A stretch of 64,000 nt of DNA. Source: a phage. The first letter of the stretch is position 1, and every line of letters starts with the position of its first letter. The stretch is taken from the NCBI GenBank assembly GCA_029942545.1, contig GCA_029942545.1_4114.1; one strand, 5' to 3'. The notes under the pieces were generated by a model. The model ran no database searches. It was given only the letters and a program-made list of their open reading frames with translations, and was not told the origin of the DNA. The position numbers and the translations under genes are program-made. Shown here piece by piece: positions 1-17,457 of the stretch.

Positions 1-25
1 TCTCCCCGATACTAGGAGAATCAAA

Positions 26-402: not shown

Positions 403-605
403 AAAAGTGGTTGACTTCGGTCAGCCATTTTGCTATTATATATTCATTGAGAGATAGCTCACTAGCCCACAGGGTGCAGGAGTGTATCTATTGTATAATG
501 ATTGAGTACAGAAAACTATTTTAAAGTATTTGATAAAAAGTACTTGCATACTATCTCAATAGGCGTATAATGTTTTACATCGCAAGGGGAAACGGTTTCC
601 CCTGG
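401..605 (+). repeat. intergenic cassette R, copy 1 (terminator-like hairpin / promoter-like TTGACT-N17-TATTAT, conserved box AGCCCACAGGGTGCA, second promoter, 5' hairpin)
   Basis: A-run + hairpin TGGTTGAC/GTCAGCCA 408-427 + T-rich tract; box 464-478; near-identical copies at ~2091, 4096, 7238, 9163. Confidence 0.6.
544..571 (+). promoter_or_regulatory. sigma70-type promoter (TTGCAT-N16-TATAAT)
   Basis: -35 544-549, -10 566-571; followed by hairpin 586-602 and RBS AAGGAAA before ATG 623. Confidence 0.55.
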
Positions 606-622
606 TAATAAGGAAACGAATC

Positions 623-964
623 ATGACTATTGCAATTGCTCAATCTAACTTTGAAAACGAAATCATCGCTCAGGTACTGCGTTTAAATGATGGTCGGGCC
701 GAAATCAATTACGGTTTCAATAGTGGTGGATGTGAAAAATATCAGTACTTTATAACTGCTGATGGCGGTGTCCTGGGCATCAATACCGTTATTGTAAACA
801 TTCAGAAAATTAATTTCAATGATCCAGACGATAGCCAGTTTTACATCACGGGCGTAGACGTGAACTATGAGGATGACTCACTAACTGATGATCACACTGG
901 TGAGAAGTTAGAAAGTGCATACGGTGAAGATGATTATCAGTCCGGTCCAGAAGATTTCGAATAA
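623..964 (+). CDS. hypothetical protein (113 aa)
   Basis: ORF track; RBS AAGGAAA 6 nt upstream; own promoter and 5' hairpin. Confidence 0.7.
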   Translation: MTIAIAQSNFENEIIAQVLRLNDGRAEINYGFNSGGCEKYQYFITADGGVLGINTVIVNIQKINFNDPDDSQFYITGVDVNYEDDSLTDDHTGEKLESAYGEDDYQSGPEDFE

Positions 965-978
965 TATTAAAAAATAGT

Positions 979-1006
979 TTGACAATAGTTTTTAGTACTG
1001 TATAAT
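979..1006 (+). promoter_or_regulatory. sigma70-type early promoter (TTGACA-N16-TATAAT)
   Basis: -35 979-984, -10 1001-1006; AGTACTG in spacer; conserved TTTACAT downstream. Confidence 0.6.
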
Positions 1007-1018
1007 AGTTTACATGAA

Positions 1019-1038
1019 GGGGAGAAATGATTCTCCCC
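1019..1038 (+). other. conserved 5'-UTR hairpin (GGGGAGAA-ATGA-TTCTCCCC)
   Basis: perfect 8-bp inverted repeat just downstream of -10; recurs with compensatory changes before many early genes. Confidence 0.55.
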
Positions 1039-1056
1039 ACTAAGAGGAAAAACAAA

Positions 1057-1269
1057 ATGGCTAATATCCGCACTGTACTGAAAAATGCAAAACAAGTTTT
1101 ATTTTCTGATCATGAAAATTTCAACAAGGATATCACAGGTGTTCGGAATATCAAAGATGTAAAAAGTGTTATGGGTATCTATTGCAATATGAAACGTGTT
1201 GGCACGTTCGGCGATAAAGTACTATACCAGGCAGGGGATTACAATTTTACACTGACTATCATTAACTAA
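1057..1269 (+). CDS. hypothetical protein (70 aa)
   Basis: track ORF 1027 starts inside the hairpin loop; ATG 1057 has RBS AAGAGG upstream, so start moved. Confidence 0.6.
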   Translation: MANIRTVLKNAKQVLFSDHENFNKDITGVRNIKDVKSVMGIYCNMKRVGTFGDKVLYQAGDYNFTLTIIN

Positions 1270-1288
1270 AAATATTATCACAGTACTA

Positions 1289-1317
1289 TTGACAACGTTT
1301 GATAGTACTGGCATAAT
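1289..1317 (+). promoter_or_regulatory. sigma70-type promoter (TTGACA-N17-CATAAT)
   Basis: -35 1289-1294, -10 1312-1317. Confidence 0.55.
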
Positions 1318-1360
1318 AACTTTTATCAAGACAACGCATATTAATTTAAGGAATACTAAA

Positions 1361-1540
1361 ATGGCTATTATCGCAAAAACTGAAATCATCGGCCTGGATT
1401 CTATCATCATGACGTTTGAAGATCAAAAAGGGATGTATGTAGTTTCCTATGGTGATTATGTTCGGGAGTATGAAACGGTAGACGAAGCCTTTGAAAGTTA
1501 CATTCGCCAGGTGAATAAAGCATACGACGACTACCGCTAA
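1361..1540 (+). CDS. hypothetical protein (59 aa)
   Basis: in-frame ATG 1361 preceded by AAGGAA; track start 1289 lies in the promoter (non-ATG codon). Confidence 0.55.
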   Translation: MAIIAKTEIIGLDSIIMTFEDQKGMYVVSYGDYVREYETVDEAFESYIRQVNKAYDDYR

Positions 1541-1567
1541 AATATATTACCAGTACTATTAAATCTA

Positions 1568-1595
1568 TTGACAATGATTGATAGTACTGTATAAT
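1568..1595 (+). promoter_or_regulatory. sigma70-type promoter (TTGACA-N16-TATAAT)
   Basis: -35 1568-1573, -10 1590-1595. Confidence 0.6.
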
Positions 1596-1639
1596 AAGTT
1601 TTATAAACAGTAGTTAACTTAACCTAAGAGAGAAACAAA

Positions 1640-1783
1640 ATGATCGCACTGGATTCATTCATCGACGCAGTACTGGCAAAAACTGGCGAGGATCTGACCG
1701 CAGAACAATACGCGATGATCGAGCAATGCCAGCAAAACGGTAAATCGGTGAAAGATACTGTTAAGATTATCCGCAAGATGTAA
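1640..1783 (+). CDS. small hypothetical protein (47 aa)
   Basis: ATG 1640 with AGAGAGAAA upstream; stop TAA 1781-1783; followed by hairpin terminator. Confidence 0.45.
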   Translation: MIALDSFIDAVLAKTGEDLTAEQYAMIEQCQQNGKSVKDTVKIIRKM

Positions 1784-1790
1784 GAATATA

Positions 1791-1820
1791 GCCCACTGGT
1801 TAACGCTGGTGGGCTTTAAT
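1791..1820 (+). terminator. putative intrinsic terminator
   Basis: GCCCAC...GTGGGC stem followed by TTTAATCATTT. Confidence 0.45.
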
Positions 1821-1888
1821 CATTTACCCTATACAATGCCAGTACTAAACCGTTTAACTCGTTAGAATGCATTACAGGACGTTTAACA

Positions 1889-2086
1889 ATGATTAGCATG
1901 AAATCAGTACAAAAACAAATTGATACATTATCAAAAATTAAACGTAAACAGTACTCATTAGAATATACAATCAATGGTAACTATCATCTAATGAAAGAAA
2001 ATAATTTTATAGTCATTGATGAATCATTGCAGATCATTAGTATAGTACTGAAAGCATTAATCAATGACAGAAAAAAGTTAAAATAA
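1889..2086 (+). CDS. hypothetical protein (65 aa)
   Basis: ORF track; weak RBS. Confidence 0.4.
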   Translation: MISMKSVQKQIDTLSKIKRKQYSLEYTINGNYHLMKENNFIVIDESLQIISIVLKALINDRKKLK

Positions 2087-2090
2087 TCTA

Positions 2091-2234
2091 TTGACAAATT
2101 ATGCCAGTACTGGCATAATACTTACATCAAGACGAGAACGTCACTAACCCATAGGGTGCACAAATGTAGCTGTCTAATATTGATCAAAAAATGATCTGAT
2201 CAATACTTGATCAATTTGCGTAAAGTAGTATAAT
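2091..2234 (+). repeat. intergenic cassette R, copy 2 (variant: promoter TTGACA-N17-CATAAT, box AACCCATAGGGTGCA, GATC cluster, second promoter TTGATC-N16-TATAAT)
   Basis: box 2146-2160; four GATC within 2182-2212; second promoter 2207-2234. Confidence 0.5.
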
Positions 2235-2417
2235 TCTATGCAGTTGGTTAGACGAAAGGTTATGATTAGTAGTGGAAGTGTATAAAAATTTTCATGGTGT
2301 GGTGATCCGCACATATGGGGATGAATATGTCGTGTCGTATGGATTGGAAAAAGTAAGAACAAGTAATATACTTGTCGCGTTACAGTACTATAGTATTTTT
2401 ATAATGAGGTTAAAATA

Positions 2418-2675
2418 ATGGCTGTAGGATTCACGAAAGATGGGGCCGAGCAAGACGAGATTAACGCAGTGATTCAGGCCGCTGTTAACCACGCTAGAAC
2501 GCAAATTAACGCACAAATAGAATCACTGATACATTGCCTCGACTGCGGCGATAAAATCCCTGAGAATCGCCGCCAGGCAGTTAAGGGGTGTAAGTACTGC
2601 ATCACTTGCCAGGCTGATCATGATAGCATATTCAAACGCAATCCCCGTAATTGTTGGCATAGATCTATGAGATAA
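2418..2675 (+). CDS. DksA/TraR-family C4 zinc-finger protein
   Basis: CLDCGDKIPENRRQAVKGCKYCITCQ matches the TraR pattern Cx2C-N17-Cx2C with conserved IPExRR; RBS GAGG. Confidence 0.75.
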   Translation: MAVGFTKDGAEQDEINAVIQAAVNHARTQINAQIESLIHCLDCGDKIPENRRQAVKGCKYCITCQADHDSIFKRNPRNCWHRSMR

Positions 2676-2681
2676 AAAGTA

Positions 2682-2709
2682 TTGACAGTGCTGTTAGTTA
2701 GTGTATAAT
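2682..2709 (+). promoter_or_regulatory. sigma70-type promoter (TTGACA-N16-TATAAT)
   Basis: -35 2682-2687, -10 2704-2709. Confidence 0.55.
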
Positions 2710-2738
2710 ATTTTATATCTTAACTGAGGATTGAAATC

Positions 2739-3095
2739 ATGGGTATACAACATATCACGCGTACTACTGACAATGGTGAAATCACTGGTTATCAAGTACA
2801 AGGCAAAGTAGCACAATTGCAGTACTGGTTTGTTAAACGTGGCATTGTCGCACCAGATCTTGATTATGATCGTGTAGCGTTTATTGATTCTCTTTATGTT
2901 GATCCCGATAATCGCGGTAACGGTGAAGGTACTGAATTAATGAATGCCTTTATTGATGCCGCCGATGATTCAGATTGTATCATCTTAGAATGCGATACGG
3001 GAGAAGATAACGCATTTAATCTTAAAGAATGGTATGAAAGTTTTGGTTTTGAAGTACTGATGGACTGCGAATATCCTATAATGATTTTATCCTAG
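2739..3095 (+). CDS. GNAT-like N-acetyltransferase (small)
   Basis: LYVDPDNRGNGEGTELMNAFI fits GNAT motif A (R-x-x-G-x-G after a beta strand); RBS GAGGA. Confidence 0.55.
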   Translation: MGIQHITRTTDNGEITGYQVQGKVAQLQYWFVKRGIVAPDLDYDRVAFIDSLYVDPDNRGNGEGTELMNAFIDAADDSDCIILECDTGEDNAFNLKEWYESFGFEVLMDCEYPIMILS

Positions 3096-3098
3096 TAC

Positions 3099-3126
3099 TT
3101 GCAATTAGTTTTAAGTACTGTATAAT
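3099..3126 (+). promoter_or_regulatory. sigma70-type promoter (TTGCAA-N16-TATAAT)
   Basis: -35 3099-3104, -10 3121-3126; hairpin 3139-3157 follows. Confidence 0.55.
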
Positions 3127-3174
3127 AGTTTACATGAAGGGGAGAATAGTTCTCCCCACTACAAGGAAAGACAA

Positions 3175-3363
3175 ATGCAAAACTTATCAAGTATTTTAGT
3201 ACAAGATGATTTCGGTAATCCTGGAAGTGCTATCATTGTTCGGGGCAATAAGGCAACGTTTGTTATTGCTGGTGGACCTGTACAGCGTAGCATTAAAAAC
3301 AATGCAGTTACAATCAATAATGTTCGCTATCGCTTAGATAAAGAATTGATTCATAAACTTTAA
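3175..3363 (+). CDS. hypothetical protein (62 aa)
   Basis: ORF track; promoter + GGGGAGAA hairpin + RBS AAGGAAAG upstream. Confidence 0.6.
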   Translation: MQNLSSILVQDDFGNPGSAIIVRGNKATFVIAGGPVQRSIKNNAVTINNVRYRLDKELIHKL

Positions 3364-3371
3364 AAAAGTAT

Positions 3372-3399
3372 TTGACAAAGCATTATAGTACTGTATAAT
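3372..3399 (+). promoter_or_regulatory. sigma70-type promoter (TTGACA-N16-TATAAT)
   Basis: -35 3372-3377, -10 3394-3399; hairpin 3412-3431. Confidence 0.6.
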
Positions 3400-3448
3400 A
3401 GTTTACATGAAGGGGAGAAATGATTCTCCCCACTAAGAGGAAAGAAAC

Positions 3449-3661
3449 ATGCAAGGTCAACTAATCGTTCGTAAATGGTCTGATACTAACGAAAAACCGT
3501 GGGATGTTCAATATATCGGACCGGACGGTGTTTCACGTTATCAACCTGGCGTAACGCATAGTACTGAGCAATATGCCGCCGCTCACCGTGAACGCCTGTT
3601 AGAATCTATGAAACAGGGATTCTGTGAAAAATTCATTCAAGATCATTGGCTGAAAGATTAA
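3449..3661 (+). CDS. hypothetical protein (70 aa)
   Basis: ORF track; RBS AAGAGGAAAG. Confidence 0.6.
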   Translation: MQGQLIVRKWSDTNEKPWDVQYIGPDGVSRYQPGVTHSTEQYAAAHRERLLESMKQGFCEKFIQDHWLKD

Positions 3662-3678
3662 TAGAAGGAGTACAGCTT

Positions 3679-3771
3679 ATGCAAATGAATCCGATGATTA
3701 TTGTTTTAGCTGTACTTATGAACATTCATGCAATAGTAGAAGTATTAACGCAATCAGGAGTAATAAAATGA
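3679..3771 (+). CDS. small hydrophobic peptide (30 aa)
   Basis: RBS AGAAGGAG 8 nt upstream of ATG 3679; below track cutoff. Confidence 0.3.
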   Translation: MQMNPMIIVLAVLMNIHAIVEVLTQSGVIK

Positions 3772-3941
3772 TCCAAGTAGAATTATCAGTACTGAAAGAT
3801 CTGTTTTATCGGTTAGGTACTAATGGCGAGTATCCTAAAAGTGATACCGCAAAACTTTTTGTATCACTCGACTTATGGCAACGCGAACAATTAGTAATGT
3901 CCTGGCGTAAAGGTAAAGCAGATAGCGAGGTGAAAGCATGA
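3768..3941 (+). CDS. small hypothetical protein (57 aa)
   Basis: ATGA overlap with upstream ORF; contains RLGTNGEY, reminiscent of the family A motif. Confidence 0.4.
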   Translation: MIQVELSVLKDLFYRLGTNGEYPKSDTAKLFVSLDLWQREQLVMSWRKGKADSEVKA

Positions 3942-4087
3942 AAGAATTCTTATTCGAAGTAGTGTTTCAAGGTGTCGGTAGCAACCAACTGATTCGCTCA
4001 AGTGGTTACAATGTTAACCAGGCATGGAATAACATTAAACAAATGTACCCGAACGCTATCACCTATCGCAACCCGAAACAAGTTTAA
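3938..4087 (+). CDS. small hypothetical protein (49 aa)
   Basis: ATGA overlap; stop TAA 4085-4087; followed by cassette R copy 3. Confidence 0.4.
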   Translation: MKEFLFEVVFQGVGSNQLIRSSGYNVNQAWNNIKQMYPNAITYRNPKQV

Positions 4088-4095
4088 AAATAATT

Positions 4096-4263
4096 GAAAA
4101 AGGGATTGACTCCGGTCAGTCCCTTTGCTATTATATACGCATAGAAACAAATCAGCCCACAGGGTGCATAAATGTATCTATTATATGCTGGTGGCTAGTA
4201 CTATCAAGTACTGAAAACTATTTTATAAAAAGTACTTGCAAAGTATCACGATAAGCGTATAAT
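4096..4263 (+). repeat. intergenic cassette R, copy 3
   Basis: hairpin GGGATTGAC-TCCG-GTCAGTCCC 4102-4123 + T-rich; box AGCCCACAGGGTGCA 4154-4168; promoter TTGCAA-N16-TATAAT 4236-4263. Confidence 0.6.
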
Positions 4264-4351
4264 GTTTTACATCAGGACGGGGAACGAAATAAGTAACCCC
4301 GTTAAGTAGTCCAGGAGTAAGACATACGAAAACCTCCCCTGATAAAATAGT

Positions 4352-4379
4352 TTGACAATAGAAATTAAACGAGTATAAT
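4352..4379 (+). promoter_or_regulatory. sigma70-type promoter (TTGACA-N16-TATAAT)
   Basis: -35 4352-4357, -10 4374-4379. Confidence 0.55.
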
Positions 4380-4409
4380 ACTTACATCAACCACAAAGAG
4401 GAATACAAA

Positions 4410-4610
4410 ATGAAACATTTTACTTTCGGTGTAGTAGGCTTTACAGTATCCAGCGGCGTTTATAAATCAGAACGCGGTGCTAAAAATGCAGCAAGTCGGG
4501 CGTATGGTTCACAGCGTGACTTACAGGTCGGTTATATTAGTAACATTAATAACATGTTTATTCCTGTTGCACAGCGTAAAGCGGGTAACATGAAATGGGA
4601 AACAATTTGA
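4410..4610 (+). CDS. hypothetical protein (66 aa)
   Basis: ORF track; RBS AAGAGGAA. Confidence 0.6.
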   Translation: MKHFTFGVVGFTVSSGVYKSERGAKNAASRAYGSQRDLQVGYISNINNMFIPVAQRKAGNMKWETI

Positions 4611-4619
4611 TAAAATAGT

Positions 4620-4647
4620 TTGACAATAGTTTTTAGTACTGTATAAT
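4620..4647 (+). promoter_or_regulatory. sigma70-type promoter (TTGACA-N16-TATAAT)
   Basis: near-identical to promoter 979-1006. Confidence 0.6.
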
Positions 4648-4677
4648 AGTTTACATCTTAATTAATAAGGAAACATC

Positions 4678-4812
4678 ATGAAAGCAGCAAACAACACTAA
4701 AAAAGCAACCAATCCCCTGGCTGGCTGGAAGTTAGATTTATCCGATGAAGTGGTTTGCACAAATCGTAATGTAGTTGAAGCTGAAAAGAAATTACGAAAA
4801 GAAAACAAATAA
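4678..4812 (+). CDS. small hypothetical protein (44 aa)
   Basis: RBS TAAGGAAA before ATG 4678; promoter upstream; the overlapping minus-strand track ORF 4662-4988 is rejected. Confidence 0.4.
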   Translation: MKAANNTKKATNPLAGWKLDLSDEVVCTNRNVVEAEKKLRKENK

Positions 4813-4815
4813 GTA

Positions 4816-4843
4816 TTGACAAAGTATCTTAGTACTGTATAAT
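4816..4843 (+). promoter_or_regulatory. sigma70-type promoter (TTGACA-N16-TATAAT)
   Basis: -35 4816-4821, -10 4838-4843; hairpin GAGGGGAA/TTCCCCTC 4858-4876. Confidence 0.6.
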
Positions 4844-4899
4844 AGTTTACATCAAGTGAGGGGAATGGTTCCCCTCCTAACAAAAAGAGAGAAATTAAA

Positions 4900-5223
4900 A
4901 TGACTATGTTCCTTACCCAGAAAGTAGAAATGAAAATTGTAACTTCCTTTGACATTAAAGTTAATCGGTGGACTGATAGCCACGGCAATACTTACCACTC
5001 ATGCTACGTGTCTGCATTGATTGGTGACCGCTGGGAAGACCTGGGACATGAAACCTTTACTTACGGTTACGGTACACAAGGCGAATACACGGGCTTGGAG
5101 ATCATTAAAGAAACCGTTATAGGTTTCAACCCGAAAGAGAAAGTACTACACAGAATTGAGAAAGAGATCAACAAAGAAATTACAGTTCGATACTACGATG
5201 TAAAACGTAAGAAAGACATGTAA
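4900..5223 (+). CDS. hypothetical protein (107 aa)
   Basis: ORF track; RBS AAGAGAGAAA. Confidence 0.6.
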   Translation: MTMFLTQKVEMKIVTSFDIKVNRWTDSHGNTYHSCYVSALIGDRWEDLGHETFTYGYGTQGEYTGLEIIKETVIGFNPKEKVLHRIEKEINKEITVRYYDVKRKKDM

Positions 5224-5245
5224 TAGAATCCATTTAAAGTACTAT

Positions 5246-5274
5246 TTGACATTGCCCAGATAGTACTTTATAAT
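5246..5274 (+). promoter_or_regulatory. sigma70-type promoter (TTGACA-N17-TATAAT)
   Basis: -35 5246-5251, -10 5269-5274. Confidence 0.55.
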
Positions 5275-5322
5275 AGACTCTAACTTGTAGTACTAATTAA
5301 CTTAACTAATAGGATGTACACC

Positions 5323-5718
5323 ATGATTACTAAATTCTTCGCTACCCGTGAACAAGCTCGCATCGTTGCCCGTGAAGAAGGTGAAACATTTAAAGACATG
5401 GGCAAAGATGCACCGAAAGGACAACGCTGGGCGGTACAGTTCAAAGAGATCTCTGATATTGTGAATTCACCTGAGCCTGTACTTACAGCAGCAGAACTAA
5501 AGCAAGCTCAAGAACTGGCTGAAGTACTGAACGCTCAAGATGACTTTTTGAAAGGTTCTGATATTGAAGTTACAGTTAACGCAAATGCATGGACTCACGC
5601 GGATCACCTGGCAAACCTTAAGCGTCCAAGTGAACTGATTCGTAACCAGAAAGAGATCCGTCATGACCGTAAAGGAAACCGTGTAACAGTATACAGTAAA
5701 CGCCGCCAGGTTATCTAA
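5323..5718 (+). CDS. hypothetical protein (131 aa)
   Basis: AGGA 5311-5314 is 8 nt upstream of ATG 5323; track ATG 5314 sits too close to the RBS; alternative start 5314. Confidence 0.6.
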   Translation: MITKFFATREQARIVAREEGETFKDMGKDAPKGQRWAVQFKEISDIVNSPEPVLTAAELKQAQELAEVLNAQDDFLKGSDIEVTVNANAWTHADHLANLKRPSELIRNQKEIRHDRKGNRVTVYSKRRQVI

Positions 5719-5741
5719 TAACTTTGCAGTACTAACAACAC

Positions 5742-5766
5742 GGCGGGAACTATTCCCGCCTTTTTT
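5742..5766 (+). terminator. intrinsic terminator
   Basis: GGCGGGAA-CTA-TTCCCGCC followed by TTTTTT. Confidence 0.8.
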
Positions 5767-5780
5767 ATAGGATAAACAAA

Positions 5781-6035
5781 ATGATTAAGGTTCAACTATC
5801 AAACGATAATGTATTACGGGTACACTATAAAGCCCCACAGAGAATCATCACAAAGGCCGTACAGCTTGCTAATGAGTTTATTAATGGTAGTCTATTGCCT
5901 AGGAAGTTAAGCAACGGGAAACTACGTGTTATCGATGTAGACACTAACAATAGAATAGTGATCGAGAGTACTGGAAAAATTAATCTATATGAACACCAAC
6001 AATACAATAAAAAAATAAAACTAATATCACGTTGA
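5781..6035 (+). CDS. hypothetical protein (84 aa)
   Basis: ORF track; weak RBS. Confidence 0.45.
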   Translation: MIKVQLSNDNVLRVHYKAPQRIITKAVQLANEFINGSLLPRKLSNGKLRVIDVDTNNRIVIESTGKINLYEHQQYNKKIKLISR

Positions 6036-6060
6036 CAGTACTCAAATGTTTTAGTATTAT
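6032..6060 (+). promoter_or_regulatory. sigma70-type promoter (TTGACA-N17-TATTAT)
   Basis: -35 6032-6037, -10 6055-6060. Confidence 0.55.
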
Positions 6061-6093
6061 GTATCTATACCAACACAGAGAGAGAGAAACAAA

Positions 6094-6312
6094 ATGAAAT
6101 TATCTAAAATCGAAAAGAAAACTATTGATGAAGCAGTGAAGCACGGTTATACCTTTCGTAATGATTCACACTTCACTAGTTTTCAACAGGGAAACCGTAC
6201 CATCAAAAAACTCATTGATAAAGGTTTACTCACTAAGGTTGATAACGGGAACGGTGTAGAATATCAACCGACAGAAGACGCATTATCACTAAAGAAATAT
6301 TCTATTATCTAA
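6094..6312 (+). CDS. hypothetical protein (72 aa)
   Basis: ORF track; leader duplicated before the next gene. Confidence 0.55.
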   Translation: MKLSKIEKKTIDEAVKHGYTFRNDSHFTSFQQGNRTIKKLIDKGLLTKVDNGNGVEYQPTEDALSLKKYSII

Positions 6313-6341
6313 TTGACAGTACTCAAATGTTTTAGTACTAT
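6313..6341 (+). promoter_or_regulatory. sigma70-type promoter (TTGACA-N17-TACTAT), duplicate of 6032-6060
   Basis: same 17-nt spacer GTACTCAAATGTTTTAG as the upstream promoter. Confidence 0.5.
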
Positions 6342-6369
6342 GAATGCATACCAACACGGGGAAAACAAA

Positions 6370-6597
6370 ATGATTACTTTAGAAAAACGTATCAAAGAGA
6401 CTACCACGCTGGTGGAACTGTTAACCGTTCTTAAATGCCGGGTAACTCCATTCAGTACACCGGACTTTATCAACATGGTGGACGTTAACGGTCGCTATCG
6501 TATTGCGGTCGAACAAGGTACGGCAAAAGTATTCAGTACTAAAAATACGCGTGAAGTATTCCACGCAGTTCAAGTAAAAAAAAGTAGTTGCCATTGA
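6370..6597 (+). CDS. hypothetical protein (75 aa)
   Basis: ATG 6370 with leader CGGGGAAAACAAA; track start 6313 lies inside the promoter. Confidence 0.55.
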   Translation: MITLEKRIKETTTLVELLTVLKCRVTPFSTPDFINMVDVNGRYRIAVEQGTAKVFSTKNTREVFHAVQVKKSSCH

Positions 6598-6644
6598 TAG
6601 TAAAGTACTGTAATATAGTTTCATTAACTCAAGGAGTCAACACA

Positions 6645-7229
6645 ATGCGTAACTATACTAAATTCATCCGTTCACTTCATGCAATGGAAACCAACAAAGA
6701 GATCCTTTCAGCTTGTCGGTTAGCTGGACTGGAGATCGTCGGTGCGGGTTCTTCCCGTATTGTATTCGCTTTAAATGATCGGTTAGTGATTAAGGTCGCG
6801 AATTGTGATGCGGGTGTAGAACAAAATGAAACTGAATGTAAGGTATGGAATTTTTTAGATTATGACCGTCCGCACCTTAAACAGTTCTTTGCTAAAGTGC
6901 ATATGCATTTATGCGATCCTGATAATCTGTTTATTGTTATGGATCGTTTGAGTACTGCAAGCAAAGGCAGTGTAAAGCATGTAAACGCGTGCAATGAGTT
7001 AAAGTACAATATTAAACGTAACACTATTGAACGCCATCACCATTTCGCTGATGCTCTCAATCACGTTGATGATACATTATCCACACTAACGATAAGAGAT
7101 ATCAGAAAACAGAATATCGGCCAGGATCGCAACGGCTTGATTAAAGTACTTGATTACGGTTTAACCCGCAATATCTGGAATCAGTACTATAAAAAACGTG
7201 ATGTTAATGCGATAACTATAACACGATAA
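6645..7229 (+). CDS. protein-kinase-like protein (putative Ser/Thr kinase)
   Basis: Gly-rich loop IVGAGSSRIVF, VIKV lysine, catalytic-loop-like RDIRKQNIG, DYG in place of DFG; RBS AAGGAG before ATG 6645. Confidence 0.55.
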   Translation: MRNYTKFIRSLHAMETNKEILSACRLAGLEIVGAGSSRIVFALNDRLVIKVANCDAGVEQNETECKVWNFLDYDRPHLKQFFAKVHMHLCDPDNLFIVMDRLSTASKGSVKHVNACNELKYNIKRNTIERHHHFADALNHVDDTLSTLTIRDIRKQNIGQDRNGLIKVLDYGLTRNIWNQYYKKRDVNAITITR

Positions 7230-7237
7230 AAAAGATT

Positions 7238-7398
7238 AAAAAAGGGATTGACTCCAGTCAGTCCCTTTGCTATTATATATTCATTGAGAGATAACTCACT
7301 GACCCATAGGGTGCGGAAGTGTATCTATTATATAAGTATTCAGTACTGAAAACTATTTGATAAAAAGTACTTGCAAACTATCTCAATGAGCGTATAAT
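7238..7398 (+). repeat. intergenic cassette R, copy 4
   Basis: hairpin GGGATTGAC-TCCA-GTCAGTCCC 7244-7265; box ACCCATAGGGTGC 7302-7314; promoter TTGCAA-N16-TATAAT 7371-7398. Confidence 0.6.
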
Positions 7399-7453
7399 GT
7401 TTTATATCGAGAGGGGGAAATGGTTCTCCCTGGTACTAAAAGGAATCAAGACG

Positions 7454-7675
7454 ATGACTACTATGACCTGCGTTCACGCTTCAAATCTTCTGAATGATGC
7501 AGCATTTAAAGCAGGTGAAGAATATCAATGCTATCGGGATGAAAATAAAAAAGTTTTCGTCGTTGATGCTAACGGTTTCCATATTGAATTACAATCCGGC
7601 TTCACTGGTGTTGATGGTAAATCAGTATGGGGCGTACAGGATGATAACGGTACATATCATTTTAAACGTAATTAA
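7454..7675 (+). CDS. hypothetical protein (73 aa)
   Basis: ATG 7454 preceded by AAAGGAA; track start 7397 is upstream, before the leader hairpin. Confidence 0.55.
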   Translation: MTTMTCVHASNLLNDAAFKAGEEYQCYRDENKKVFVVDANGFHIELQSGFTGVDGKSVWGVQDDNGTYHFKRN

Positions 7676-7678
7676 GTA

Positions 7679-7706
7679 TTGACAAAGTATATCAGTACTG
7701 TATAAT
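7679..7706 (+). promoter_or_regulatory. sigma70-type promoter (TTGACA-N16-TATAAT)
   Basis: -35 7679-7684, -10 7701-7706; hairpin 7719-7737. Confidence 0.6.
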
Positions 7707-7759
7707 AGTTTACATCAAGGGGAGAATAGCTCTCCCCACCAATAAAAGGAAACAAAATT

Positions 7760-8032
7760 ATGTCCAGCTACTCCGCTACTATGATTATTAAAGATATGAA
7801 CGGTAATCCTACTTCTGCTGGTGGATCATTTGGTAACATTAACTTAGATGGTCGGTTATCAATTGAATCAGCCATCAATGCCGCGAAAGAAGTTTTTAAG
7901 AATGAATGTACTGTAAGCAAGCTGGATTATATGGGCTTCGCTATCGAGAAAACTAATCGTTTTGTGGACTACAAAAAACCACTGATGATTGATACTAACC
8001 TGAAAGCAAACGAAGTGGAATACTTATTATGA
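7760..8032 (+). CDS. hypothetical protein (90 aa)
   Basis: ORF track; RBS AAAGGAAA. Confidence 0.6.
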   Translation: MSSYSATMIIKDMNGNPTSAGGSFGNINLDGRLSIESAINAAKEVFKNECTVSKLDYMGFAIEKTNRFVDYKKPLMIDTNLKANEVEYLL

Positions 8033-8220
8033 CAGTAGAAGAAGTTAAAAAAGTACTGGCAGTACTACGCTATCATAATCATTGTAAGGTGAAGAATGAT
8101 CCTGATTATCTTGATTCATCGCTGGAAGAGGATACACTACAAGCAATAAGCCATATGCAAAAAATGCTTAAGCGTATGACCGAAAAGAACAGGCCGGACT
8201 ATATCGGAAATAAAATTTAA
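8029..8220 (+). CDS. hypothetical protein (63 aa)
   Basis: ATGA overlap with upstream gene. Confidence 0.5.
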   Translation: MTVEEVKKVLAVLRYHNHCKVKNDPDYLDSSLEEDTLQAISHMQKMLKRMTEKNRPDYIGNKI

Positions 8221-8227
8221 AAAGTAC

Positions 8228-8255
8228 TTGCATTGTAAGTAAAACAAAGTATAAT
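8228..8255 (+). promoter_or_regulatory. sigma70-type promoter (TTGCAT-N16-TATAAT)
   Basis: -35 8228-8233, -10 8250-8255. Confidence 0.55.
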
Positions 8256-8303
8256 GTTTTGCATAGGGGGAGATATCCTCCCCCACTAATAAGGAGTACT
8301 AAA

Positions 8304-8528
8304 ATGGCTAACTTTGATGAACTGATGCGGGAAGTAGCTACCCTGGCAGAAGAGAAGAAATCATTTGATTCTATCTATAACACCGCTTACAGTGATTCAG
8401 TACTGGCATGTACTCAGGATCAAAAAGATGAACTGATCGCCACCTATCATGAAGCATGGAAGTACTACCGCCAATGGGAGAAAGAAGAAAGCGAGTCTAC
8501 CATCAACGGCATCAATAATCTAATCTAA
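8304..8528 (+). CDS. hypothetical protein (74 aa)
   Basis: ATG 8304 with RBS AAGGAG; track start 8259 falls in the leader hairpin. Confidence 0.55.
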   Translation: MANFDELMREVATLAEEKKSFDSIYNTAYSDSVLACTQDQKDELIATYHEAWKYYRQWEKEESESTINGINNLI

Positions 8529-8602
8529 AGTTTTATTTCAGTACTATTGACAATGCGTGATAGTACTGATGTGATAACTTTACTAACTAAAGGGGAAACA
8601 TA

Positions 8603-8860
8603 ATGGAACAGTTTAAAACGTATCGGGTAAATCCAATCGCTACAGCCTACGTAGAAGACCATAAAACATTACCAGTACAGACACCAATCAAAGGCCGTAT
8701 CTATCGTGCTATGCAGTGGAATAACGCCTATAATGGCTATAAAGCGGTAGCGGCTGCAATGTACTTAGGGGATGGCGAATGGTTTGATCCAAATAATCCT
8801 GGTGCACTCGATAGTACTGAACAAATGACATGGGCCGACTATATCGAAGATATTTCATAA
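8603..8860 (+). CDS. hypothetical protein (85 aa)
   Basis: ORF track; RBS AAGGGGAAA. Confidence 0.6.
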   Translation: MEQFKTYRVNPIATAYVEDHKTLPVQTPIKGRIYRAMQWNNAYNGYKAVAAAMYLGDGEWFDPNNPGALDSTEQMTWADYIEDIS

Positions 8861-8867
8861 AAACTAT

Positions 8868-8895
8868 TTGACAGTACTACAAGATAATGTATAAT
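8868..8895 (+). promoter_or_regulatory. sigma70-type promoter (TTGACA-N16-TATAAT)
   Basis: -35 8868-8873, -10 8890-8895. Confidence 0.55.
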
Positions 8896-8948
8896 GTTTT
8901 ACATAGAGCGGGGGAATAGTTCTCCCGCACCTTTAGGAGTAAAACATT

Positions 8949-9149
8949 ATGTCAATCGCTAACGAATTGGTTGCAGTACTGAATGAAGCAAAAGCCAACT
9001 GCATCGATGTACAGATCAAAGAGCTTGGCAATGGCTTGATCGGCTGTACTTGTACAGTGCAAACGGCTACCGATTATCGGGAAGTGGAATCACTCGAATC
9101 ACTGGTACGGTATATTAAAATCCTGGTAGAAGATTGGAGAATCATCTAA
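8949..9149 (+). CDS. hypothetical protein (66 aa)
   Basis: ORF track; RBS TAGGAG. Confidence 0.55.
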   Translation: MSIANELVAVLNEAKANCIDVQIKELGNGLIGCTCTVQTATDYREVESLESLVRYIKILVEDWRII

Positions 9150-9162
9150 CAAAAAAGAATAA

Positions 9163-9352
9163 AAAAAAGGGATTGACTCCGGTCAGTCCCTTTGCTATTA
9201 TATACGCATAGACAAAAACTAGCCCACAGGGTGCAGAGAAGTATCTATAAGATAGTTAATAACGGTGAGTAACTATCTGCTGGTGGATGTAATGCCAGTA
9301 CTCAAAACTATTTCAAAAAAGTATTGACAAAGTATATCAGTACTGAGATAAT
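9163..9352 (+). repeat. intergenic cassette R, copy 5
   Basis: hairpin GGGATTGAC-TCCG-GTCAGTCCC 9169-9190; box AGCCCACAGGGTGCA 9221-9235; promoter TTGACA-N17-GATAAT 9324-9352. Confidence 0.6.
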
Positions 9353-9406
9353 GTATCTCGTAGGGCGGCAATAGTGCAGCCCACCTCCAAAAGAGCGAGA
9401 TATAAA

Positions 9407-9622
9407 ATGGCGTTAACCAAACAAGAAATTATCGACCGTATCAAAGAGTCAACTGGCTGGTATGTTGGGGACCGTTTAATTGTTAAAGTTCTCGATTATT
9501 CAAATAATCCTCTTGCACCGGAACCAGTGGCATACAAATTATCCTGGATATCTGCGTTTAGCGGTAAGCGTGAAAGATGTGTGTACTATCCGAACACAGT
9601 CGGGCTACAGTTCTGTAAATAA
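9407..9622 (+). CDS. hypothetical protein (71 aa)
   Basis: ATG 9407 after leader; track start 9374 lies in the leader hairpin. Confidence 0.55.
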   Translation: MALTKQEIIDRIKESTGWYVGDRLIVKVLDYSNNPLAPEPVAYKLSWISAFSGKRERCVYYPNTVGLQFCK

Positions 9623-9640
9623 ATTTTAATAGAAAAAGTA

Positions 9641-9669
9641 TTGACAAAGTATATCAGTACTGCAATAAT
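9641..9669 (+). promoter_or_regulatory. sigma70-type promoter (TTGACA-N17-AATAAT), duplicate of 9324-9352
   Basis: promoter and leader (GTAGGGCGGCAAT...) duplicated for two consecutive genes. Confidence 0.5.
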
Positions 9670-9722
9670 GTATCTCGTAGGGCGGCAATGGTGCGACGGC
9701 CCACAAAGTTAGGAGATTCACC

Positions 9723-10049
9723 ATGAGTACTTCAATCGCTATCGTTAAAGCTTTCATCCGTACCAATTTCGACCGCATTACTGTTGATGGTAATGATCGG
9801 GAAGTAGAATACTCTTTCATTGTTGCACAAACCGCAAACGGTGCACGCTATATCTTAAACGATAGTGAAGCTAACCACTACTTCTATAATAAAGGATTAC
9901 ACTACATCCCTAGCGAAGTAGTCTACAGTAAGATGAATAAGCTGGTAGACAAGATTAACGCTAAAGGTACTATCGATTTACAGTACTGGACCGAAACCGA
10001 TCCAGAATACGGATCACATCGTTACCTGAATCCAGGAATTAAAATGTAA
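9723..10049 (+). CDS. hypothetical protein (108 aa)
   Basis: ORF track; RBS AGGAG. Confidence 0.6.
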   Translation: MSTSIAIVKAFIRTNFDRITVDGNDREVEYSFIVAQTANGARYILNDSEANHYFYNKGLHYIPSEVVYSKMNKLVDKINAKGTIDLQYWTETDPEYGSHRYLNPGIKM

Positions 10050-10056
10050 AAAGTAC

Positions 10057-10084
10057 TTGCATTGTACTTAGAATCAAGTATAAT
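10057..10084 (+). promoter_or_regulatory. sigma70-type promoter (TTGCAT-N16-TATAAT)
   Basis: -35 10057-10062, -10 10079-10084; leader hairpin follows. Confidence 0.55.
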
Positions 10085-10138
10085 GTTTTACATAGAGAGG
10101 GGGAAATGGTTCTCCCTCCTAAATTAAGGAGTTTTATC

Positions 10139-10540
10139 ATGACCTTCTCAATCACTTCCTTCGCTGACGTTTTAGTACTGGCTCGGACTTTTGGTAAAGA
10201 TGCACTGGAGTACGCTGTAAGTAATGGTACTCTCCAACCGGAACAATGCCGCATCATTGGAAACTGCAAACGTTGGGCGGTATCCAATACTATTGCACTA
10301 GAAAACTTCAACGATGGTAACAATGAGTATTCAGTTGATGCAGTATTCGAAGCCGTTGATCTTGGCGGTATCTATAACACTAACCTAAATGATGTGCGTA
10401 TCGTTCGCACGGGGTTCGGTGCTTATGATGTATCTATCCGTGAAGCTATGAACACCGGATACATTAGTAAGGACTTACTTGCTCACATCATGCAGCTATG
10501 GACGGAACGTAACGAAGCACGCACTATCTTAGGACTATAA
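10139..10540 (+). CDS. hypothetical protein (133 aa)
   Basis: ATG 10139 with RBS AAGGAG; track start 10106 is inside the leader hairpin. Confidence 0.6.
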   Translation: MTFSITSFADVLVLARTFGKDALEYAVSNGTLQPEQCRIIGNCKRWAVSNTIALENFNDGNNEYSVDAVFEAVDLGGIYNTNLNDVRIVRTGFGAYDVSIREAMNTGYISKDLLAHIMQLWTERNEARTILGL

Positions 10541-11880: not shown

Positions 11881-12089
11881 TTATATTAACACCTGAAGAA
11901 TATAAGAAACGTTTTAATTCTGTCCAGACTGAAATATTACTTATATACCTTTCAAATGCAGACCTTAACTTATCAAGGGCAATGGAGAAGGATTTACTTA
12001 TGGGTGCATTTTTGGATACAGACTTTCAGGTGTATTATGTAGGGGAATACTTAATTGCACTCCAGAATTACATTAGGAGTAAACTATGA
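11877..12089 (+). CDS. family A small paralog
   Basis: motif LDTDFQVYYV; ATGA overlap. Confidence 0.65.
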   Translation: MIILTPEEYKKRFNSVQTEILLIYLSNADLNLSRAMEKDLLMGAFLDTDFQVYYVGEYLIALQNYIRSKL

Positions 12090-12304
12090 AACATTTAAGT
12101 AATATTGAGAAGATGAGAATTATCATTGATGCATTAAACAAATACGATACCCTTTTACAAATAAAAGGTTTAACTCGATTGGAACACAAGATAAACACCA
12201 CCGATGTACGCATGTTGGCTGTACTGGGGACGAACTTTCAGGAAGAGTATGTTGTTGCACACATAGTTGCCCTCACTGATCTAATAAGGGACAAATGTAA
12301 ATGA
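12086..12304 (+). CDS. family A small paralog
   Basis: motif LGTNFQEEYV; ATGA overlap. Confidence 0.65.
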   Translation: MKHLSNIEKMRIIIDALNKYDTLLQIKGLTRLEHKINTTDVRMLAVLGTNFQEEYVVAHIVALTDLIRDKCK

Positions 12305-12558
12305 AACACTTAACTGATGATGAATTTGAAACTATAATTCGTAAACTAACCCCCATCACAAGGATAGTCTACGGTGACCCCAGCCTTACATGGAACCAAA
12401 TGCGAGCTAAAGTTAATGAGCTATGGTTGCTGTACTTTATGGGGACTCAATATCAAGATAAGTTTTGCACAGAATATATCGAACAATTAACGAATGTTAT
12501 ACAGGATAAACTAGATGATTATTTGCTCACAAAACATGAAGACTTTATCAGGAGTTGA
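12301..12558 (+). CDS. family A small paralog
   Basis: motif MGTQYQDKF; ATGA overlap. Confidence 0.65.
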   Translation: MKHLTDDEFETIIRKLTPITRIVYGDPSLTWNQMRAKVNELWLLYFMGTQYQDKFCTEYIEQLTNVIQDKLDDYLLTKHEDFIRS

Positions 12559-12787
12559 GTATCAAACTGCCCTATTCTCTTTAATCCATACCCTTAGAAA
12601 AAACAATGCCTTACATGGTGCACCTGAAGTGGATGTTATCAACGGTGAACTTTATCTTATGAAATTCATTGGAACAAACTATCAAGATCTGTTCATTCAA
12701 CGATACTTATCCGCATTAAGAAACCAAATCCAATATAAAACCATCAAGGCCAAAAAAGAATGGAATAAACAATGCGACACAGACTAA
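12536..12787 (+). CDS. family A small paralog
   Basis: motif IGTNYQDLF; start uncertain (12515 or 12536), overlaps upstream gene. Confidence 0.55.
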   Translation: MKTLSGVEYQTALFSLIHTLRKNNALHGAPEVDVINGELYLMKFIGTNYQDLFIQRYLSALRNQIQYKTIKAKKEWNKQCDTD

Positions 12788-13020
12788 ATCACAAAATGTA
12801 TTGTAAACTATTGCAGACACTGGCACAGAAACACTATGACACGGTATCTGAAATATTACCCTATGATATCATGCGTTTACTTCACTGTGAGGCCGAGATG
12901 CTTGTACTGATGACAGGCACTGATAAAACAGCAATCGCCAGATCGATAGAGCAATATATTGATGCACACTGCCAACACATGAGAACCGAAATCTGGAGGA
13001 AAGAGAATGATAATTCTTAA
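12772..13020 (+). CDS. family A small paralog (divergent)
   Basis: same size and position in array; motif degenerate (MTGTDKTAIA). Confidence 0.55.
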   Translation: MRHRLNHKMYCKLLQTLAQKHYDTVSEILPYDIMRLLHCEAEMLVLMTGTDKTAIARSIEQYIDAHCQHMRTEIWRKENDNS

Positions 13021-13222
13021 TGAGTATCAGTATCATTGGAGGTTACAAACTATCAAATCAAAAGTGTATAGTATTGTGTTAAACAAATCTATTGCACAAG
13101 AGGACAAATGTGTTATAATAGCTGAAATGAAGTTGGGTGTATTCGTAGGGACAAACTATCAAAACATCTACACTGACGTATTATTAAGTTCCTTACGTAA
13201 CAAGGTGGTATCCAAAATATGA
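13007..13222 (+). CDS. family A small paralog
   Basis: motif VGTNYQNIY. Confidence 0.65.
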   Translation: MIILNEYQYHWRLQTIKSKVYSIVLNKSIAQEDKCVIIAEMKLGVFVGTNYQNIYTDVLLSSLRNKVVSKI

Positions 13223-13437
13223 GAAATTTACAAGGCTTTGAATACATCAGACTCCTGAAAACATGTGGAAGGAGAAGGAGAATGATATCAAGCGATAAGA
13301 GCATCCAAGCTAACCTTAAGCACGCACTAGTAACTGAACTCTATGTAGGTGCACTCTTAGGCACAAACTATCAACAAATGTATGTAGAACTATGGATTGA
13401 CGCTCTACAGAAAGAGGTTAAAAGTAAATGCAAATGA
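13219..13437 (+). CDS. family A small paralog
   Basis: motif LGTNYQQMYV; ATGA overlap. Confidence 0.65.
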   Translation: MRNLQGFEYIRLLKTCGRRRRMISSDKSIQANLKHALVTELYVGALLGTNYQQMYVELWIDALQKEVKSKCK

Positions 13438-13646
13438 TTAATTTAAGTAAAGACGAATTTTATGTTATACTGGCGAAAACTTATCCAGCACGTAAGGCCG
13501 TTTATGATAGTCACATTATTGAACCCTCAAAGAAGTTGATTTTAGTAAATGAGATAAAGATGCTTTCAGTCTTAGGAACAAACTATCAAGAGAATGCTGT
13601 ACTGATGTTAATTGATGCCCTCCAGCGAGAGGTTAAACGTAAATGA
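13428..13646 (+). CDS. family A small paralog
   Basis: motif LGTNYQENAV. Confidence 0.65.
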   Translation: MQMINLSKDEFYVILAKTYPARKAVYDSHIIEPSKKLILVNEIKMLSVLGTNYQENAVLMLIDALQREVKRK

Positions 13647-13873
13647 AAATGATTAATTTAACTTACCATGAATATCAAAAACGTTTAAATGCATCCAGAG
13701 ATATAAGGATTCAAATATTCAATAACAAAAGATTGAAGCCTGATATCAGGAAAATCAAAATCATAGAAGCCGTGTTGTGCAACTTCCTAGGGACTAACTA
13801 TCAGGAAGGTAAGGTAGAAAACTATCTTATAGAACTCATGAATAGTATTGAAAATAAATGTAAGGGTAATTAA
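13643..13873 (+). CDS. family A small paralog
   Basis: motif LGTNYQEGKV; ATGA overlap. Confidence 0.65.
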   Translation: MKMINLTYHEYQKRLNASRDIRIQIFNNKRLKPDIRKIKIIEAVLCNFLGTNYQEGKVENYLIELMNSIENKCKGN

Positions 13874-13874
13874 C

Positions 13875-14114
13875 ATGAAAATGATTAAATTATCTCAAGC
13901 AAAATATAAAGAACGCCTGGTGAAAATTGCACCTGGACTTAATGAAATCCATCACGGAGAAGTCATTAAACACGGAAATAAGATGATTAAGAAACTTGAG
14001 TTAAAGGTGGGTGCATTCATAGGAACAAACTATCAGGAGTATTATGTAGATGAATACATAATCGCACTTAAGAGATACATTGGAAGAAAACTATATCTAC
14101 AAACTAAAGAATAG
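13875..14114 (+). CDS. family A small paralog
   Basis: motif IGTNYQEYYV; ATG 13875 chosen by homology (MKMIKL); track start 13848 is upstream. Confidence 0.6.
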   Translation: MKMIKLSQAKYKERLVKIAPGLNEIHHGEVIKHGNKMIKKLELKVGAFIGTNYQEYYVDEYIIALKRYIGRKLYLQTKE

Positions 14115-14137
14115 TATTGAAAATAAATGTGAGGTTG

Positions 14138-16802: not shown

Positions 16803-16803
16803 T

Positions 16804-17377: not shown

Positions 17378-17388
17378 TACAAATTATC

Positions 17389-17417
17389 TTGACAGTACGG
17401 TAAGGTAGTGCTATAGT
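17389..17417 (+). promoter_or_regulatory. sigma70-type promoter (TTGACA-N17-TATAGT)
   Basis: -35 17389-17394, -10 17412-17417. Confidence 0.55.
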
Positions 17418-17457
17418 ACTTTCACATTTAATGTACGTTCAATAAAGGGTAGATATT

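Follow-up and report, generated by a model that had tools for sequence, protein, structure and literature searches.

Leader hairpins under selection for RNA pairing behind sigma70 early promoters of an Asteriusvirus and other large coliphages

Results and discussion

The stretch of phage DNA analyzed here (64,000 nucleotides of contig GCA_029942545.1_4114.1, hereafter the window) carries, near its start, a family of short G-rich/C-rich hairpins located just downstream of early promoters. These hairpins were shown to be real, coupled to promoters and under selection for pairing in the sense-strand RNA, and not to be intrinsic terminators. The element would act in cis as an RNA stem-loop of 7-9 bp, with a G-rich 5' arm, a C/U-rich 3' arm and a loop of 3-8 nt, forming close to the 5' end of many sigma70 early transcripts. 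The most interesting aspect is that the cassettes concerned are shared across phage lineages.

The early region and its hairpins

Bases 900-10200 of the window were 97.7% identical to Escherichia phage 121Q over 61% of their length, and approximately 100 further related Escherichia and Salmonella phages matched the same bases at 85-93%. The window is the early region of an Asteriusvirus, a 121Q-like jumbo coliphage; 121Q itself is a jumbo myovirus of ~350 kb belonging to Asteriusvirus. The first ~10.5 kb of the window form a + strand array of small open reading frames (ORFs), nearly all of them annotated as hypothetical in the relatives, and in front of most lies a sigma70 promoter close to consensus (TTGACA or TTGCAw, a spacer of 16-17 nt, TATAAT). 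The array is an early region transcribed by the host polymerase with sigma70. Most of its genes have no terminator of their own, and no tRNA or tmRNA genes were found in the window. The promoters at the hairpins matched 10-12 of the 12 consensus positions and had an AT-rich upstream region at every copy. About half of the equally strong early promoters are not followed by a hairpin, and the leaders of these are ~20 nt shorter.

The exact arrangement GGGGAGAA-N3-12-TTCTCCCC occurred three times in the window (1019, 3139 and 3412) against 0.00 expected in shuffled sequences, and a generic hairpin scan retrieved ten G-rich/C-rich stems of 7-9 bp with loops of 3-5 nt on the + strand between 585 and 10118. 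Three divergent hairpins occupy the same post-promoter position (~4276-4303, 9363-9382 and 9680-9702), and a fourteenth, cut by the window start, was recognised through its 121Q orthologue. An unfiltered scan of all 64 kb with a covariance model built from 15 hairpin variants (R1) gave + strand matches only at 580-10121 and none at 11-64 kb; most copies are perfect palindromes, so the minus strand scores as well.

These results agree with the original prediction, made from the letters of the window, that a stem-loop lies directly downstream of at least ten early promoters: each of the ten canonical copies stands behind a TTGACA/TTGCAw-16/17-TATAAT promoter. The same prediction described the stems as mostly GGGGAGAA/TTCTCCCC, which overstates the case, since the exact 8-bp version accounts for three of the ten copies, or four if the 7-bp copy at 7719 is included. 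A paired variant had also been placed at 586-602. There is a paired hairpin there, but an 8+1+8 arrangement is impossible, the real form being AGGGGAAA-cgg-TTTCCCCT at 585-603, and this copy falls outside the range of 979-10130 that had been given for the family. The variant reported at 4858-4876 (GAGGGGAA-tgg-TTCCCCTC) does keep its pairing.

Selection acts on pairing in the transcribed strand

Pair counts did not draw on a plain MAFFT alignment of 68 leaders, in which loops of 3 nt and 4 nt were misregistered, but on a model-derived alignment (A4) of + strand matches only, with 33 distinct rows. Standard pairs filled 99.2% of the cells of A4 compared with 93.1% in column shuffles, both sides of a pair had changed in 23 cells compared with 6.8 expected, and the covariation score was 0.332 compared with 0.196 (0/500 shuffles in each case). 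When the partner was slid by 1-3 columns, pairing fell to 58-86%. These figures lean towards structure because the alignment was fitted to the model; an independent loop-anchored table of 53 distinct variants agrees with them. In this table pairs 1-6 were paired in at least 98% of the sequences, GC, AU and GU interchanged at pairs 3, 4, 7 and 8 and GC with CG at pair 6, and pairing was lost from position 9 outward.

In pairs 1-7 of the loop-anchored table, G·U filled 16 cells and A·C filled 4. The A·C cases that arose from whole-stem scoring were mostly doubtful outer extensions of the stem or came from the error-prone CMSTMSU record. The sense fold was more stable by >2 kcal/mol in 14 of 45 unique hairpins, and the antisense fold in one of the 45 (Wilcoxon p=0.0017). 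The preference for G·U over A·C, together with the sense-strand folding energy, indicates selection on transcribed RNA rather than on a palindrome bound by a protein in the duplex, although formally the strand asymmetry would also fit selection on + strand single-stranded DNA.

Conservation among orthologues points the same way. Over 21 orthologous groups, defined by the same downstream gene, stem columns varied by 4-5%, loops by 19% and flanks by 21-25% (Fisher p=2e-4 and 2e-9), which shows purifying selection on the stems and not on the loops or flanks. One orthologous group has a constant AGCGGGAA/TTCCCGCT stem with tgg, cac or ctg as the loop, and at several genes the stems differ between phages yet are fully paired, as in GCGGGGGAA/TTCTCCCGC versus GAGGGGGAA/TTTCCCCTC. 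The loops, 3-8 nt long, comprised at least 25 different sequences, including TAG, ATGA, ATGG, TGG, CGG, AAAC, ACATC, ATATC, CAC and CTG. The core G-C pairs hardly vary, and purines make up nearly all of the 5' arm. Such near-constant polarity would be expected if a single ancestor had drifted by compensatory transitions alone, with G·U as the intermediate, and a purine 5' arm alone does not require sequence-specific recognition. The earlier argument from covariation to selection on RNA structure was thus upheld by compensatory and G·U changes, by strand asymmetry and by orthologue conservation, and the statistics over the 33 distinct rows of A4 (pairing, both-side changes and covariation score) exceeded those of the shuffles.

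The hairpins are not intrinsic terminators, since no U-tract follows the stem (the 8 nt after it average 1.9 T and typically read ACUAAGAGG). The terminator scan called no + strand copy, and ARNold, in the annotation of phage G17, marked other sites and never the leader hairpins.

Cassette anatomy and leader geometry

Anatomy was determined on unique cassettes from the window and from the 121Q, G17, TH47, JP4, CMSTMSU and Salmonella SD-2_S15 loci, leaving out variants found only in the CMSTMSU record. The first paired base lay 12.5 +/- 1.1 nt past the -10 hexamer (10-14 nt for the window copies) and the last paired base 19.9 +/- 2.1 nt ahead of the ATG, with the core of the Shine-Dalgarno sequence (SD) 5-9 nt past the stem. 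A -10-like hexamer was present upstream of 86 of 87 + strand model matches from nine sources (the window, five Asteriusvirus loci with CMSTMSU left out, and three more distant phage loci), and in 83 it ended 12-14 nt before the stem. These distances were counted on the + strand rows of the first model-derived alignment (A3), which also held minus-strand copies of the palindromes.

Between the -10 box and the stem, the conserved sequence reads (a/g)tttACAT(c/g)aa. Transcription usually starts 7-8 nt past the hexamer, with a pyrimidine at -1 and a purine at +1, and we infer that it starts here at the A of tACAt, the 8th nt past the -10 box. The unpaired leader would then measure from 3 nt (the copy at 8266) to 7 nt, typically 5 (AUCAA or AUGAA). 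The hairpin dominated the predicted leader folds at -13 to -15 kcal/mol, and the SD was unpaired in most copies. General sequestration of the SD by the 3' arm was rejected, as it appeared in the predicted fold of one copy only (10092-10157). The order of the cassette would be UP element, -35 and -10 boxes, tACAt start motif, the hairpin as an optional middle module, 5-9 nt, SD and the ATG of a small ORF. The individual copies, all on the + strand, are as follows.

1-7 (+): 3' arm TCTCCCC of the hairpin truncated at the window start, with an SD and a gene downstream at 26-178; the 121Q orthologue reads GGGGGGAA-tgg-TTCTCCCC-gatactaggagaatc (121Q locus, 3339)
585-603 (+): AGGGGAAA-cgg-TTTCCCCT, 13 nt past the -10 box at 566-571 (-35 TTGCAT at 544-549); gene 623-964
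1019-1038 (+): GGGGAGAA-atga-TTCTCCCC, 12 nt past the -10 box of the promoter at 979-1006; ATG at 1057; the hairpin is the dominant predicted fold (centroid -13.9 kcal/mol)
3139-3157 (+): GGGGAGAA-tag-TTCTCCCC; promoter 3099-3126, gene 3175-3363
3412-3431 (+): GGGGAGAA-atga-TTCTCCCC; promoter 3372-3399, gene 3449-3661
4276-4303 (+): divergent, longer GACGGGG...CCCCGUU; promoter 4236-4263, no ORF downstream
4858-4876 (+): GAGGGGAA-tgg-TTCCCCTC, a compensatory variant; promoter 4816-4843, gene 4900-5223
7412-7431 (+): AGGGGGAA-atgg-TTCTCCCT with one G·U; promoter 7371-7398, ATG at ~7454; absent from the minus-strand list of the generic hairpin scan
7719-7737 (+): GGGGAGA-atagc-TCTCCCC; promoter 7679-7706, gene 7760-8032
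8266-8284 (+): GGGGGAG-atatc-CTCCCCC, just 10 nt past the -10 box at 8250-8255 (-35 TTGCAT at 8228-8233); ATG at 8304
8908-8928 (+): GCGGGGGAA-tag-TTCTCCCGC with one G·U; promoter 8868-8895, gene 8949-9149
9363-9382 (+): divergent GGGC.GCA-auag-UGC.GCCC; promoter 9324-9352, ATG at 9407; phage muut has a similar hairpin, GGGCGGCA-atag-TGCCGCTC
9680-9702 (+): divergent, weak GGGC...GCCC, the weakest member (z-score near 0); promoter 9641-9669, gene 9723-10049
10097-10118 (+): GAGGGGGAA-atgg-TTCTCCCTC with one G·U; -35 at 10057-10062, -10 at 10079-10084, ATG at 10139; the predicted minimum-energy fold competes with the hairpin

Distribution across phages and exchange of cassettes

An 84-nt cassette query found the element in 60 phage records. 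Outside Asteriusvirus, the promoter/hairpin/SD architecture was present in three groups: the Vequintavirinae (GGGGAGAA-tag-TTCTCCCC and GGCGGGGAG-tgt-TTCCCCGCC in phage A73), Justusliebigvirus (GCGGGAA-tag-TTCCCGC and GGCGGGGAA-atgg-TTTCCCGCC in muut) and the Salmonella jumbo phage 7t3 (GGGGGAA-acatc-TTCCCCC, and GAGGGAA-acatc-TTCCTTC with two G·U pairs). No family member was found in one Klebsiella Alcyoneusvirus locus or, with model R1, in the RB49 locus. A scan of IMG/VR with the exact consensus yielded the 121Q genome alone, the other matches being unrelated contigs with the same palindrome in other contexts.

These unrelated viral contigs (L016, L019/L021 and L022) carry the palindrome, GGGGAGAAC(C/T)GTTCTCCCC, as a dispersed intergenic repeat whose flanks are conserved (ACT...AGT or CAG...CTG), with four copies in 8.6 kb of L016. 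In one of them, L022, an SD and an ATG come after TATAAT-gaac-GGGGAGAA-aaag-TTCTCCCC. These cases indicate that G-rich leader or intergenic hairpins recur in other phages.

Comparison of window positions 4657-4804 with positions 8046-8356 of the 121Q locus revealed the replacement of a gene module, with breakpoints exactly at ...TATAATAkTTTACAT (~4657) and at the next TAAGTATTGACA (~4804). The 121Q module consists of a hairpin and an ORF of 92 aa, and the window module of an ORF of 44 aa without a hairpin. Since the breakpoints coincide with the start motif and the next promoter, recombination uses the promoters as linkers, and the hairpin is carried along with the gene. The presence of the hairpin in several unrelated large coliphages marks a shared pool of exchangeable early-gene cassettes. 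The original prediction missed this point, namely that the hairpin is part of a mobile promoter/leader/ORF cassette system common to several phage lineages.

Proposed role of the hairpin

Protection and insulation of early mRNAs is the most likely role of the leader hairpin, a reading that we put forward tentatively and rate somewhat below an even chance. The hairpin would raise and standardise the expression of whichever small early gene comes next. It would make the 5' region of the mRNA a poor substrate for 5'-end-dependent decay (RppH and the 5' sensor of RNase E). It would also hold the first transcribed segment, which is purine-rich and SD-like, in a fold of its own and so keep it from pairing or competing with the real ribosome-binding site. 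If so, the hairpin would be a compact natural part of the 5' untranslated region that works before arbitrary small genes behind near-consensus promoters, and this would explain how ORFs for host takeover can be shuffled freely without upsetting their expression. In jumbo phages 80-90% of the early genes have no known function, and the hairpin provides a simple annotation signature that tells early-promoter leaders from terminators in these genomes.

As a 5'-terminal stabiliser the hairpin is plausible but borderline, judging by its predicted geometry. The mRNA of T7 gene 10 is stabilised by a 5' stem-loop, and such a stem reportedly has to lie within ~2-4 nt of the 5' end (Emory, Bouvet and Belasco, in 1992). 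According to the work of Emory (1992) and Bricker (1999), as cited in PMC3997798, the ompA and papA mRNAs are likewise stabilised by 5' stem-loops, and RppH of Bacillus subtilis requires at least 2-3 unpaired 5' nt (PMC3997798).

Several points weigh against a protective role. The predicted unpaired leader of 3-7 nt, usually 5, is at or beyond the 2-4 nt limit for a stabiliser and would be long enough for RppH. Simple orthogonal stem-loops are readily bypassed by scanning RNase E (PMC9943677), so the version in which the hairpin is a barrier to scanning is weak. The hairpin is not essential for early expression, given that about half of the equally strong early promoters lack it. The near-constant polarity and the invariant G-C core could point instead to sequence-specific recognition, and the coupling to promoters may in part reflect the inheritance of whole cassettes rather than a positional requirement.

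Among the alternatives, the best placed, and in our view still unlikely, is a composite of the promoter-early stem-loop (PeSL) type, in which the stem attenuates, pauses or terminates read-through from the upstream promoter and the cassette serves as a recombination linker for ORF shuffling; each small gene would then be expressed mainly from its own promoter. The PeSLs of T4-type phages combine sigma70 early promoters with Gn-loop-Cn stems between small ORFans, and one PeSL stem cut reporter expression as much as rrnB T1 (PMC2839356); in one PeSL subclass the stem is downstream of the -10 box. The shortage of terminators in the array fits such a role, as do the exact breakpoints of the swap between the window and 121Q at the tACAt start (~4657) and the next promoter (~4804), and true PeSL-like stems over the -35 box do occur in the window (404-431, 4099-4126, 7241-7268 and 9166-9193). 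On the other hand, the leader stem lies inside the cassette's own transcript, so that efficient termination would kill the downstream gene too. The missing U-tract, and the failure of both the terminator scan and ARNold to call any copy, also speak against it. The stems of RB49, where R1 has no match, lie in the -35/-10 spacer and not in the leader, and in the swap described above the hairpin belongs to the exchanged ORF module rather than to the conserved linker.

We give little weight to a second possibility, that the hairpin is an operator for a phage or host RNA-binding protein or nuclease that jointly controls how a subset of early mRNAs is translated or degraded, for instance when early expression gives way to middle expression. 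It would account for the restriction of the hairpin to a defined subset (~half) of early transcripts, for the near-invariant G-C core and near-constant purine 5' arm, for stems better conserved than their flanks, and for the persistence of the family across three or four phage lineages. Loop sequence and length are free, however, even among orthologues, and this speaks against an operator recognised by its loop. Substitutions in the stems are compensatory, the stems have no bulge and no other unpaired nucleotide that is conserved, and neither a candidate binding protein nor an Rfam family was identified; searches of Rfam at the gathering threshold and at a permissive E-value gave no relevant family. 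The common translational operator that had been suggested originally is disfavoured for the same freedom of the loops and by the unpaired SD in the predicted folds. A boxB/nut antitermination site was rejected, the loops differing in length and sequence and Rfam giving no match.

A broader form of recognition, to which we assign a similarly small chance, would make the hairpin the cis-tag of a cross-lineage early-mRNA regulon, with a conserved phage or host factor reading the G-rich helix. Such a tag would set when a defined subset of host-takeover genes is shut off, or would spare these genes the bulk mRNA decay induced by the phage, and would spread among unrelated coliphages (Asteriusvirus, Vequintavirinae, Justusliebigvirus and 7t3-like) together with its small ORFs.

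A co-transcriptional role is improbable. It supposes that the purine-rich initial transcribed sequence aids escape from near-consensus promoters and that the 3' arm then masks the SD-like tract, or the nascent hairpin pauses the polymerase near +35 for ribosome loading, or both. The 5' arm, at ~+4 to +14, is nearly all purines, cassettes without a hairpin place the purine-rich SD itself at ~+11 to +18, and in strong T5 promoters the initial transcribed region is rich in purines and influences escape. The argument is inferential, however, and drift by G·U transitions from one ancestor would keep the same purine/pyrimidine polarity. Finally, a function of the inverted repeat as DNA, whether an operator for a dimeric repressor at early promoters, a cruciform or a recombination site, is very improbable: mostly perfect palindromes do lie at ~+5 to +25 of many early promoters, but G·T is tolerated and A·C is not, which is strand-specific, the half-sites are spaced by 3-8 bp, and they drift by compensatory change instead of being fixed, and on these grounds a palindromic DNA operator was rejected.

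Neighbouring elements

A bona fide terminator is present at 5742-5760, where GGCGGGAA-cta-TTCCCGCC is followed by TTTTTT; it looks bidirectional and was called by the terminator scan. Its stem is almost identical to those of the leader hairpins, suggesting that leader hairpins and terminators may be interconvertible in evolution through gain or loss of the T-run.

A repeated element of ~150-200 nt occurs at 395-545, 4085-4235, 7227-7370 and 9152-9320, with a variant near 2091-2200. It consists of an A-run followed by a hairpin, AAAGGGATTGAC-tccg-GTCAGTCCCTTT, within which lies the -35 box (TTGACT) of a promoter of the form TTGACT-17-TATTAT. This element is a true PeSL-like composite of terminator and promoter; its hairpin was called a terminator by ARNold in G17, and the element is also found in Salmonella phage 7t3. 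A conserved AGCCCACAGGGTGCA motif is present in the predicted transcript, which has no obvious ORF.

At 4265-4345 the consensus promoter at 4236-4263 is followed by ~80 nt without an ORF up to the next promoter. Conservation of this sequence (AUCAGGACGGGGAAC...CCCCGUUAAGUAGUCCAGGAGUAAGACAUACGAAAACCUCCCCUGAU) extends to 121Q, G17, TH47, JP4, SD-2_S15, the Vequintavirinae phage A73 and Justusliebigvirus muut. A shorter paralogue and a variant in 7t3 share with it the core UAAGUAG.C..AGUAAG.C..ACGAAA and one covarying pair (UA/AU/CG). This segment, which includes the divergent hairpin at 4276-4303, is a candidate small non-coding RNA of ~80 nt with no match in Rfam.

In the record of phage JP4 the entire early array, hairpins included, is present twice (11900-29100 and 32000-47200, offset by 20,114 bp), and the homologous region of the relative vB_Ec-M-J is annotated as 'Direct Terminal Repeats'. 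The early region of these genomes probably sits in a long terminal repeat.

The palindrome AGTACT, a ScaI site, occurred 216 times in the window against 21 expected from base composition, an excess of ~10-fold. The next palindromic hexamer was only 2.6-fold in excess, and several GC-containing palindromes were wholly absent. The AGTACT sites are spread over all 64 kb, in coding and non-coding DNA, often as CAGTACTG (47 times), and some lie in promoter spacers (for example at 1000, 3120 and 7699). The excess could reflect a signal for DNA binding, modification or recombination.

Comparison with known systems

The closest described system is the PeSL cassette of the T4-type phages RB49/phi1, PST/T4 and nt-1/KVP40 (Arbiol et al. 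2010, PMC2839356; Comeau et al. 2014, PMC4122927). PeSLs were proposed to end upstream transcription and to mediate modular shuffling in hyperplastic regions (PMC2839356, PMC4122927). Both systems combine a near-consensus sigma70 early promoter and AT-rich upstream sequence with a G-run/loop/C-run stem that admits G·T, an SD and a small ORFan; both are repeated many times in a hyperplastic early region, with boundaries that coincide with gene replacements between close relatives, and one described PeSL subclass places its stem past the -10 box. They differ in that the stem described here lies in its own transcribed leader (~+4 to +25), past the predicted +1, whereas the PeSL stem lies before the start or overlaps the promoter; our scan of RB49 placed the stems in the -35/-10 spacer. 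There is no sequence homology, as R1 finds nothing in the RB49 locus, the promoter is here the recombining linker while the hairpin moves with the ORF module, and the lack of a U-rich tail makes a role as a terminator unlikely.

The leaders of ompA, papA and T7 gene 10 share with the present element conservation of structure rather than of sequence; a simple hairpin near the 5' end of the mRNA, upstream of an accessible SD, would be common to both if transcription starts where predicted. The T7 leader, GGGAGACC...GGUUUCCC, is resembled by the G-rich 5' arm found here. The predicted unpaired leader of 3-7 nt is at or beyond the limit of 2-4 nt ascribed to leaders of the ompA type, and the present hairpins form a multi-copy family that precedes dozens of genes and is common to several phage lineages.

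The nut/boxB site of phage lambda is also a small promoter-proximal RNA hairpin on early transcripts, but the present element has no boxA, no conserved loop and no N-like protein identified, and it precedes many single small genes instead of heading long operons. With intrinsic terminators it has in common a G+C-rich stem of 7-9 bp and a short loop, and differs from them in lacking the U-tract. Literature searches turned up no account of the present leader hairpin in phages of the 121Q/PBECO4, RaK2 or rV5 type. The element resembles known promoter/stem-loop cassettes and leader hairpins, and it differs from the PeSL cassettes in having the stem within its own transcript and no U-rich tail.

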